From IMG/VR virus record IMGVR_UViG_642791630_000009: 49,569 nt of DNA, one strand, 5' to 3'. Below, piece by piece: positions 3,001-6,000 of the stretch (the stretch's first letter is position 1; each line of letters begins with the position of its first letter). This DNA comes from a virus. Lineage: Duplodnaviria > Heunggongvirae > Uroviricota > Caudoviricetes. Position numbers: made by a program.

Positions 3001-6000
3001 AGGCCAGTTCATTGTCGAGTGTTTTCCATGTCTGTTTGTATTCGCGGCGAATGGCAACAGTGACAGCCCCGGTTTTTTCAGCAGCGTTTTCAGTGTTCTG
3101 TTGGTTGACTCTGGCGCGGGTGAGATCAACAACAGACGTGTATTTTCCGGTTTCCTTGCGTTCACCTTCGCGACGTTTTTTCCAGATGCGCATCTCTGCC
3201 TGAATTTCAGGCCATTTAGCGCCAGGCTCACATTTATGCTTAACCCACCCGATGGCATGCAGTTTAAGTTCAGGATACATGGCGTTAACTTCTGGCATTT
3301 TCATCAACGCTTCAACGATATGTCCGCCGAATGTTGCCATGTCTTCCTGTAGTAATTCCTGTGCGCTAATCACCATATCAACGGTGATGTTTTCGCATGT
3401 GTCGAATTTAACCAGGACTGCGTTCTGTACTTCAGGGGACAGCTTGTCAAAATTGACGTTCATCGGATCGGATTCTGGTTCGACCGGTACAAAGGAAGCT
3501 GACTCCTCATCCCAGCGGTTTTCCTGCATATATTCGGTATCCCAGGAATCGAGGGCAGGGCGGGGTATGCCGGGTTTATCCTCGCAGACAATAAATTTAT
3601 AAGCGCAGTCCTGAGCTGCCGGGAATTGCTCCAGAAATTGCCAGTGAAATTTTGCGCGTGCGCGACGCTCATCACCGGCTTCAATGGCAGTGGCCACCGC
3701 AACAGCGCTATCTTCTTTTATGGCCTGTTCGTCAGGAATAGCAGCGCAAATAAAGATTTTACTCATTGTGTTTTAACCTCATTACAGATTTAAGGGTGAA
3801 CAAATCCCTGCCATTGCTGGCATATAAAAATGAAACCGGATATTAATTACGGTGCTGTTTTAAAGTCCTGCCGGTATTTCGTTATTATTAGTGTGAGTAG
3901 TTTTATCTACCGGATAACAGTTACCGGGAATTTTTTGTTCTGCTGCTGCAGCCATGCATTCTTTCATTGAACCGTATAAGCCAGTCACCAGCTCAAGAGA
4001 TTCGCCGGAAACAAGATAAACTGTCAGAACGAGTGCAAATGTTGTATTCATTGTTTATATCCTTTTTGCAGCAGGTCCAGACGAGCCAGCATTGAAGGAA
4101 TGCATACTTCATTTAACAGGTCCTGCTCGAGTTTTCTCTGCTTAATGGCGTCTTCAATAAATGTTTTGTCTCCAGTGATAACGCCAATTTCGAAACGAAG
4201 TTCAGACGTGCTGGCATTACATGATAACTTTTCCATTATCGCGTCCTCAACAATGAATTTTGTGATGCGGTGCCTGGTGCCTCCAGGTGACGTTAACCAG
4301 TTAACAATTAACGCCGGATACAGAGCATTCTCGTTACTCAGCAAATGACCGCTTTACCGATTTAACTGTTCCGCGTGCGCTGAGCCGCATTCACCGCATC
4401 ACAAAATTCACTTTTAAAAAAGGGCGGCAGAGCAGTTACGGAGTAAAACTGATACCGCCAAATGTCACCAGAATATTGATAACAGAGGGCGTTGCAGCGG
4501 GGTTGTCACTTAAGCGTATGGTCAACCTGACAACCCGGTGTCCTCAACGGGGAAAGAATAACCCCGCCATACTTACCGCCGCGCCATTTCGCGGATTGCC
4601 ACAACCGGAAGCGCACGGTCGAATTAAATTTAACGACGGCTCTAAGGGAGAAGGACTTCGCCGTGCACTTTCGTGTTATGCCCTGACTTTTCAGGGATAT
4701 ATCCTTTCAGTAAACTGTCAGTGCCGGATTCTTATCTGTGTCCGGCGCACGACCACACGTAGCAGCGTGTTGGTCTCCATTTTTAATTCAGCCCTTAATG
4801 GAGGATAAAATGCCAAACAAACCATGCCCTGCCTGTAACGCTCTTTCTGGCTTTTTAGAGAAGGGCGGTTATTACATTTTTAACTGTCCAGAACATGTTG
4901 AATTTCATATATCAAAACTTGACAGTATCATTACAAAGCCAAATCAGTATCAGTCTGATTTACTGAATAAAGAGTTAAACGCCGCCCGAGATTAAGGGCG
5001 TAGTGGCCCATTAAAAATATTGCAAAGACCAACTATTGTTGAACTGGATTAAACCAGTAATTCTCTATTGCTCTTATTGTTACCATCGGATGATTGCCGG
5101 GGGTTATTTTAAGTTCGGGAGGAAAAGGCTCTCCATCAGCAGCCATCATTGAGTATGTGAAATCCGCCGACGCAGTCCCTTTCATGATAATTCCGAATTT
5201 TTCAAGTAATGAGAGCAGTTCCGGTAATCCTGTGTCATCTGAATAACTTTCCTCATAGAAAGAAGCGATTGCCGCAGGAGATGACAGTTCTCGCTCTGCA
5301 ATTTTTTTGTAGTTTTCCAGAATTCTTTTTTTGAATACTTTTCCTCGACATGAAAACCCATCACCGAGGCAATCCGCTTTGCAGTTTCTTCAGTATTCTG
5401 GTTGTTTGTTACCGAAACAGAGTACAATCCGGTAAACGCATCGCGCACATTACGAGCCATATTATCAATGTATTTCTTCGTTGCAGATTCTAATTCAACT
5501 TCGTTCAGACGTTGGTGAAGTGCATGTGCTGCAATTTCCTGGATTTCTTTTAGTAAATCTTTAAATTCCATCTTTAACTCCGTTAGTCGTTAGATTTTGC
5601 CGAACTGGAAAGCGCCTGTTTAAACTCACTGAAGCTGAGAGCTTCCTCGCCTTCGGCAAGGCCTTCGAAGTATTCTTCGTAAGCCTTTTCCATGATTGTG
5701 TCGAAATCCATATCACTCACCTGAGTTTCTTTCCAGCCAGCGACGGGCACCATTTTCGGTTTTAAACGTTTTGCTTTTGGTATACGTCATCGCGGTGAAT
5801 GTACCGTCCTGGTTGGGAAACACGCCGTACACCAGAGATTCGTTGTTGCCAAGATCGATAGTATCCATGTTGACCTCATTTCCCCTTAACGCCGGGTAGC
5901 GGAACAAAAACCTGCTGCATAGTTATTAAAGTTGAACCCTGCCGTCATGTTCATACGCCTCGGGCTGGCTACTTACCCCCTGACCACTGCTTGGTAACTC

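Follow-up and report, generated by a model that had tools for sequence, protein, structure and literature searches.

The dicBF operon of Escherichia coli O157:H7 Sakai prophage Sp4: a conserved DicF precursor domain, exchangeable small RNAs and a convergent small gene

The 49,569-nt stretch analyzed here (IMG/VR record IMGVR_UViG_642791630_000009, referred to throughout as the window) carries the already studied dicB/DicF cell-division-inhibitor operon of Escherichia coli O157:H7 Sakai prophage Sp4. Region 3800..6100 was found by sequence search to be 100% identical to many E. coli O157:H7 chromosomes, and the location of the window in the Sakai genome corresponds to the annotated feature "prophage Sp4, lambda-like phage." An earlier, sequence-only reading had described a structured spacer, called unexplained, upstream of DicF, a small RNA (sRNA), together with a zinc-ribbon open reading frame (ORF) antisense to the operon. 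Because the window is identical to O157:H7 sequence, DicF matches its Rfam family, and the spacer aligns with those of K-12 prophage Qin and phage Tritos, it is highly probable that the region is an early-left (PL-type) dicBF operon with the spacer as the DicF processing scaffold and the antisense ORF as a small gene in its own right.

The spacer as the DicF precursor

DicF was recognized by Rfam model RF00039 over its full length (model positions 1-52 on 4422..4473, minus strand) at 76.9 bits against a gathering threshold of 48 (E 2e-15). Its terminator stem, GGCGGUAUCAG...CUGCUCUGCCGCC, is followed by CUUUUUU, and the Sp4 copy differs from K-12 DicF by two substitutions. Members of the DicF family base-pair with ftsZ and other targets and bind Hfq. 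A K-12 processing pathway with 190-nt and 53-nt DicF products was reportedly described by Faubladier in 1990. K-12 DicF is excised from a polycistronic transcript initiated at dicBp, and no internal promoter was found; RNase III makes the 5' end of the 190-nt species and also the 3' end of a 72-nt form, RNase E makes the 5' end of the 53-nt DicF, and no transcript longer than ydfABC-dicF was detected (Ragunathan et al. 2023).

When the operon strand was aligned with K-12 Qin and phage Tritos, the three sequences proved near-identical from ~4747 to the dicB start and unrelated upstream of 4747. The coordinates of the K-12 190-nt species (K-12 positions 1649245..1649434), transferred by pairwise alignment, fell on window positions 4611..4422 without gaps and with 5 mismatches in 190 positions (97% identity). 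Given this near base-for-base alignment with Qin and the match of 4422..4611 to the published 190-nt RNase III product, the spacer is, judged from its sequence, the known DicF precursor, explained by published work. The suggestion that it might be the processed precursor was therefore borne out, whereas its description as unexplained was not, the precursor having been documented in K-12. Two findings had been named as refuting anything beyond this, namely alignment of the spacer with the known precursor, which was observed, and an antisense ORF lacking conservation, which was not.

With a GC content of 50.9%, the spacer is GC-rich relative to its flanking genes (38-44%) but not relative to the window mean (51.3%), and its RNA folds better than 100 of 100 shuffled sequences (z = -3.6), in agreement with its earlier description as structured. 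A permissive Rfam scan of 4200..5250 returned only DicF, a weak STnc100 match and small nucleolar RNA noise. The additional RNA element that had been considered survives only weakly, as a strongly conserved junction domain inside the precursor.

In minimum-free-energy (MFE) and consensus folds, each of the two published RNase III sites is located within a long predicted helix. The upstream one is an imperfect duplex of ~22 bp in which 4657-4680 pairs with 4600-4623 around a variable loop (4624-4656), and the transferred cut for the 190-nt 5' end (~4612/4611) lies within it. Fifteen sequences carry a compensatory AU to GC change at 4670/4609 in this duplex, several changes affecting one side were also seen, and the adjacent hairpins at 4681..4747 show compensatory changes at 4692/4685 (GC to UA), 4744/4725 (CG to AU or UA) and 4716/4709 (AU to GC). 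The downstream helix, of ~21 bp (~4411-4393 with 4271-4253), closes the entire DicF-dicB leader and encloses its hairpins; the 3' end of the 72-nt species, transferred from K-12, maps to ~4403 inside this helix. When the 190-nt species is folded, pairing is predicted between the AU-rich linker and the 5' seed of DicF (UGUUAUCA with UGGUGACA), and the DicF 5' end lies in the loop of this linker-seed hairpin, a position at which RNase E cleavage would be predicted to unmask the seed.

By analogy with K-12, cleavage can be supposed to occur at the same sites in Sp4, and the following course is proposed. Once the repressor is lifted, one polycistronic minus-strand transcript would extend from ydfA to dicB by way of 700 nt of untranslated sequence, the conserved part of which would act as the processing scaffold. 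RNase III would cut the ~22-bp duplex to give a 190-nt species made up of the four-way-junction domain, the AU-rich linker and DicF, and RNase E would cut the linker to give the 53-nt DicF, ending at its own intrinsic terminator. Read-through transcripts would carry the second long helix, to be cut by RNase III just upstream of dicB. The antisense ORF would have been inserted convergently, in the manner of a moron, into a variable slot flanked by the first genes of the operon and by the scaffold. In Sp4 both this ORF and its neighbor ECs_1063 are decayed alleles.

Conservation of the junction domain and exchange of its neighbors

The 5' extension of the 190-nt species, between the upstream cut and DicF, is predicted to form a 115-nt four-way-junction domain (4491..4605), in which three hairpins are closed by a stem of 4598-4605 with 4491-4498; it is 97% identical to K-12. 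To compare loci, 120 IMG/VR loci anchored on the core motif and 87 loci anchored on the DicB protein were collected, the second set being unbiased as to the spacer. Identities to the window across 69 unique dicB-anchored sequences were 93-98% for the core (4497-4616) and 98-99% for the dicB leader (4237-4316), compared with 66-78% for DicF and 61-88% for the dicB coding sequence. The junction domain is more conserved than either DicF or dicB.

A covariance model of the core (R1), built from 78 sequences, scored at least 124 bits in 86 of the 87 loci anchored on dicB, in each of them ~240 nt upstream of dicB, and gave one match in the 49.6-kb window, where the next best scored 11 bits. In the alignment of the same number of sequences (n = 78), 95.9% of cells are in standard pairs, against 35-65% when the partners are slid. 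Four core pairs have changed on both sides, among them a CG to UA pair in the closing stem (6 sequences) and a GC to AU pair in hairpin 2, and the stem of hairpin 2 is kept despite variation in sequence and loop length. Loci with dicB were found only in Escherichia and Shigella apart from one contig, and a DicB scan of one genome per species gave 7 loci. The exceptional contig, JAGZPX010000007.1, is labeled as a Veillonella parvula metagenome-assembled genome (MAG) and carries a complete junction domain (157.7 bits) at its dicB locus; the likeliest source is an E. coli prophage whose contig was binned into the MAG in error.

What follows the core varies. Among 96 distinct sequences, at least eight sRNA classes were found at the DicF position, after the core, with canonical DicF accounting for 51. 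The non-canonical classes have different 5' single-stranded regions and a similar terminator, and several of these alleles give 32-43 bits with the Rfam DicF model, short of its threshold. As at least eight classes follow a near-invariant core, the processing scaffold and dicB remain constant and the sRNA is variable; no description of interchangeable sRNA alleles behind this scaffold was found in a literature search that was not exhaustive. It is conceivable, although rather unlikely, that the junction domain and its flanking RNase III helices form a dedicated, portable platform for sRNA maturation and expression, with DicF as one member of a modular family. The domain may then be the near-invariant, always dicB-linked part, with the sRNA swapped among at least eight alleles with different seeds, and it could have a function of its own, such as RNase E recruitment or timing, seed masking, or coupling of sRNA release to dicB translation.

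One gene relevant to DicF lies elsewhere in the window: pchA (ECs_1091, ~22055..22369, minus strand) is carried by the same prophage Sp4. DicF is described as pairing with the pchA 5' untranslated region and promoting LEE (locus of enterocyte effacement) expression in enterohemorrhagic E. coli (EHEC) (Melson and Kendall 2019, as cited in PMC11774850). An sRNA and one of its virulence targets are therefore found on one prophage.

The DicF-dicB leader is a structural relative of the STnc100 (RF02076)/PasD prophage sRNAs, at scores that fall short of family membership. Positions 4259..4408 matched STnc100 at 33.6 bits (E 2e-5; gathering threshold 47), and similar sub-threshold matches (31-40 bits) were obtained in all 11 of the 11 other loci tested. 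The leader fits the central multi-hairpin part of the model, sharing the CACCnGGAGGCACCnGGCACC hairpin and the outer closing helix, with sequence differences that keep the pairing. It differs from STnc100 in scoring below the gathering threshold, in lacking the terminator of STnc100, and in lying in an mRNA 5' region upstream of dicB, whereas STnc100 lies downstream of late-region tRNAs. Such a full-length STnc100 sRNA was found by Rfam in the same prophage at 18435..18625 (plus strand, 138 bits), directly downstream of three late-region tRNA genes (18109..18355; ileZ/argN/argO in Sakai), and is a paralogous relative of the dicB leader element. Because the base of the closing helix reaches the dicB Shine-Dalgarno region in the predicted fold, RNase III cleavage may affect dicB translation.

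The antisense ORF and competing explanations

The ORF antisense to the operon, ECs_1061, was described earlier as well initiated, and it does have a strong GGAGGA Shine-Dalgarno sequence and a RefSeq entry as a hypothetical protein (WP_001133046.1). It has a GC content of 37.6%, and its residues 1-61 align with positions 5-65 of the 65-position PHROG 10133 profile (E 7.3e-48). Over 58 gap-free codons shared with an 80-aa allele, the proportions of synonymous (pS) and nonsynonymous (pN) differences were 0.63 and 0.19, respectively, with a ratio of nonsynonymous to synonymous substitution rates (dN/dS) of 0.16. The CPxC...CPxH motif (C6, C9, C26 and H29; CPAC...CPEH) is invariant in 5 sequences from homologs that are 42-64% identical. 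Given this dN/dS and the invariant motif, ECs_1061 is, on comparative grounds, a gene encoding a real protein, the product of which probably binds a metal. The Sp4 copy is cut short by a premature TAA at 4993-4995. The ancestral frame runs on to 5058, as in alleles of 81-84 aa, and beyond the stop it reads GRSGPLKILQRPTIVELD, which matches the 84-aa allele and still encodes the C-terminal 18 residues.

Close relatives of ECs_1061 recovered in a word-indexed search were clusters at 95% identity or more, made up of near-identical E. coli sequences, and diverged alleles (72% nucleotide identity) were present in E. coli O139 P15-25 and in IMG/VR contigs. An exhaustive HMMER search added one true distant homolog, of 91 aa and 48% identity; two long repetitive proteins from that search were taken as spurious. 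In another lambdoid early-left operon, one with no DicF core, the 91-aa homolog is found at this same antisense position, and its placement is therefore independent of DicF. No homologs were found by tblastn of ECs_1061 against phages, no match was found in Pfam or PADLOC, and the literature search returned nothing for ECs1060, ECs1061 or ECs1063.

The slot itself is variable. The leader of the ORF (4748..4809, plus strand) is predicted to fold into two hairpins. The first is GC-rich and precedes a T-run, an arrangement that resembles a plus-strand terminator; in the second, CUCCAUU pairs with AAUGGAG, covering part of the ECs_1061 Shine-Dalgarno sequence. This leader is conserved in O139 and O145 loci despite different cargo, and in other prophages at least five unrelated cargo ORFs share this leader together with its Shine-Dalgarno sequence and the initial codons. 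Among these alternatives, the clearest encodes a 69-aa MPNKKRNPLIEK... protein, and ORFs of 61, 64, 91, 94 and 101 aa were also seen; an antisense cargo ORF was present in ~21 of the 57 dicB-anchored loci carrying the upstream hairpins. Pfam and defense-system scans of the alternative cargo ORFs were negative except for a marginal match of the 94-aa cargo of an IMG/VR locus (MAKFTVRIELRD...) to GhoS, the Pfam family of an endoribonuclease that acts as an antitoxin (21.2 bits; cutoff 21). ECs_1061 resembles phage morons in its own strong Shine-Dalgarno sequence, opposite direction, lower GC content and variable-cargo slot, but differs from them in that no promoter or terminator has been demonstrated and the Sp4 copy is truncated. 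It is a genuine, orphan, locally truncated prophage gene in a variable slot.

The antisense ORF was thus upheld as a real conserved gene, and no evidence was found for the regulation of DicF that had been proposed for it. Such regulation is not needed, because K-12 Qin, which has neither the ORF nor its leader, processes DicF in the same way. A stronger form of the proposal, in which the unit is mainly an antisense RNA whose transcript pairs with the operon and tunes DicF and dicB through RNase III cleavage or transcriptional interference, the ORF being secondary, carries little probability. It would fit the convergent, fully complementary arrangement, the conserved leader common to unrelated cargo ORFs and the fact that RNase III already acts on this operon, but it sits poorly with strong purifying selection at the protein level and invariant zinc ligands, with a homolog that keeps the same slot where there is no DicF core, with the many dicF loci (most of them, K-12 included) that make DicF and have no antisense unit, and with the failure to detect a promoter. 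Protein coding by the spacer itself is barely credible. The earlier statement that the spacer is without any ORF does not hold, as a TTG-initiated, plus-strand frame of 110 codons spans 4476..4808; a minus-strand frame of 36 codons lies at 4506..4616, and the tag ECs_1060, absent from the current RefSeq annotation of the interval, may once have marked an ORF. However, homologs interrupt the long frame with indels of 1, 2, 4 and 8 nt, the O139 copy has a different frame arrangement, the TTG start has no Shine-Dalgarno sequence, no Pfam match was found, and current RefSeq annotates nothing there.

Two further explanations concern the junction domain. The put RNAs, of which HK022 has two copies (putL and putR), suppress termination and pausing through the zinc-binding domain of the RNA polymerase beta' subunit. 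A cis-acting, put-like antiterminator would let RNA polymerase read through the DicF terminator and express dicB, ydfD and the recombination genes, and the domain is like put in being a structured RNA in a lambdoid early operon with no recognizable N-type antiterminator protein, upstream of an intrinsic terminator, which transcription must pass if dicB is to be expressed. In 86 of 87 loci it is also found with dicB irrespective of the intervening sRNA allele, its conservation exceeds that of DicF, and it has the 9-mer GCGCGGCGG in common with HK022 putL. Even so, this explanation is very improbable: R1 finds nothing in HK022, putL and putR included (best 10.3 bits, E ~0.9), the domain is present as a single copy per prophage with no second R1 copy at the place in the window expected for a putR equivalent, its four-way junction contrasts with the two stem-loops of ~70 nt in put, K-12 has no detected transcript longer than ydfABC-dicF, and RNase III severs the domain from the downstream RNA. 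STnc100 was also considered as a put RNA and was discarded, as no STnc100 match was returned when the immunity region of HK022 was scanned with Rfam. Improbable too is the view that conservation of the core reflects recent spread and a homologous-recombination joint between mosaic prophage modules, its structure being incidental. Mosaic breakpoints do occur on either side of these conserved blocks (upstream, close to 4747 or 4822, and again at the sRNA allele), the carriers are all Escherichia or Shigella, and compensatory substitutions are few; against this, the experimentally mapped K-12 processing sites fall in predicted helices, substitutions preserve pairing well above the level with slid partners, hairpin 2 varies and keeps its stem, and the folding z-score is -3.6.

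A processing scaffold next to a separate small gene remains the preferred interpretation, in which the junction domain would exist to direct or stabilize processing. Several points weigh against it. All cleavage sites in Sp4 were transferred from K-12 by alignment, and processing alone does not obviously need a domain more conserved than the sRNA that it releases. Core covariation is limited, with four double-change pairs and a covariation score only slightly above that of shuffles, and is modest because the core sequence barely varies. On the side of the antisense gene, a promoter scan gave no convincing promoter, and the "zinc ribbon" label rests on the motif, given a poor single-sequence AlphaFold model with no strands (predicted local distance difference test score, pLDDT, 50.6).

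Operon layout and comparison with Qin

Gene order was checked by ORF listing, Pfam, PHROGs and RefSeq annotation, and the features are collected in the following table.

Features of the Sp4 dicBF region, in window coordinates and in the direction of operon transcription
Feature	Position	Strand	Evidence
ydfA (DUF1391), 51 aa	5713..5868	-	Pfam PF07151, E 1.7e-28
ydfB, 42 aa	5583..5711	-	RefSeq "protein YdfB"; PHROG 2061, E 3.5e-27
ECs_1063, 129-aa ORF in ydfC position	5182..5571	-	PHROG 1363, E 1e-50
50-codon remnant ORF	5033..5185	-	Local alignment to 186-aa O139 protein
Antisense ORF ECs_1061, 61 aa	4810..4995	+	PHROG 10133; RefSeq hypothetical
Antisense-ORF leader	4748..4809	+	Conserved in O139 and O145 loci; predicted fold
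Three short hairpins (4681-4696, 4704-4721, 4723-4746)	4681..4747	-	Homologous to Qin; compensatory changes
Imperfect ~22-bp duplex around transferred RNase III cut	4600..4680	-	MFE fold; compensatory changes
Four-way-junction RNA domain	4491..4605	-	K-12 identity; conservation; pairing counts; covariance model
AU-rich linker with inferred RNase E site	4475..4490	-	K-12 alignment; literature; fold
DicF sRNA, 53 nt, with intrinsic terminator	4422..4474	-	Rfam RF00039; aligns to K-12 dicF b1574
Structured DicF-dicB leader	4237..4421	-	Folds; conservation; sub-threshold STnc100 match
dicB ECs_1059, 62-aa cell-division inhibitor	4048..4236	-	Pfam PF05358 (DicB), E 7e-39
ydfD-like DUF1482 gene ECs_1058	3860..4051	-	Pfam PF07358, E 2.8e-19; RefSeq

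The Qin-type order ydfA-ydfB-DicF-dicB-ydfD was found with all members co-oriented. The minus-strand order given in the sequence-only reading was accordingly correct, and ydfA is present as stated, the region end at 5907 corresponding to an upstream TTG start and the RefSeq start to an ATG at 5868. ECs_1063, which occupies the place of ydfC, is not homologous to it and showed no similarity to YdfC (BLASTP E 0.4). Its first 88 residues and the 50-codon ORF, which overlaps ECs_1063 by ATGA at 5182-5185, each align to one 186-aa protein, the gene for which is intact in E. coli O139:H1 P15-25; by this comparison, 5033..5571 is a split version of the 186-aa gene and ECs_1063 a decayed one. A weak HEC-02A match to ECs_1063 was returned by the defense-system scan.

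As in K-12 Qin (ydfABC-dicF-dicB-ydfD), the operon has ydfA, ydfB, DicF, dicB and ydfD in the same order and the same predicted helices around the published RNase III sites. It differs in several respects. Where Qin has ydfC, Sp4 has the split 186-aa-type gene together with the convergent antisense ORF and its leader (4748..5571). Sp4 DicB is a diverged allele, only 55% identical to K-12 DicB by alignment. A RelE/ParE-RelB toxin-antitoxin pair (6146..6624, minus strand) lies between the repressor gene (6652..7053) and ydfA, whereas Qin has at this position only the dicA-ydfA intergenic promoter region. The Sp4 promoter region has no homology to K-12 dicBp beyond the ydfA ribosome-binding site. 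A perfect TTGACA on the minus strand lies within the palindrome AAAAACTGTT...AACAGTTTTT (~6062..6089), directly downstream of a terminator-like hairpin (6127..6112), and this palindrome is a candidate for the PL/dicBp-equivalent promoter with its operator.

Two other RNA elements were noted in the window. A sok antitoxin RNA at 13210..13384 (plus strand, 105.6 bits) implies a hok/sok-type module, and an ALIL frameshift pseudoknot was found by Rfam at 21155..21271 (plus strand), within a copy of IS629 annotated in Sakai.

The question raised by the sequence-only reading can be regarded as closed, as this is an ordinary dicBF operon whose spacer is the known precursor. That reading correctly describes a well-known system of a much-studied strain, and its content is largely already known; the new points are refinements, namely conservation of the core above that of DicF, interchangeable sRNA alleles, an STnc100-like leader and a variable antisense slot. 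DicF and DicB, both made by prophages, halt division of the host cell, change its metabolism and protect against some phages, and in EHEC they promote virulence through pchA. The side results reported here could guide work on the maturation and diversification of prophage sRNAs, as refinements of this system rather than as a new kind of system.

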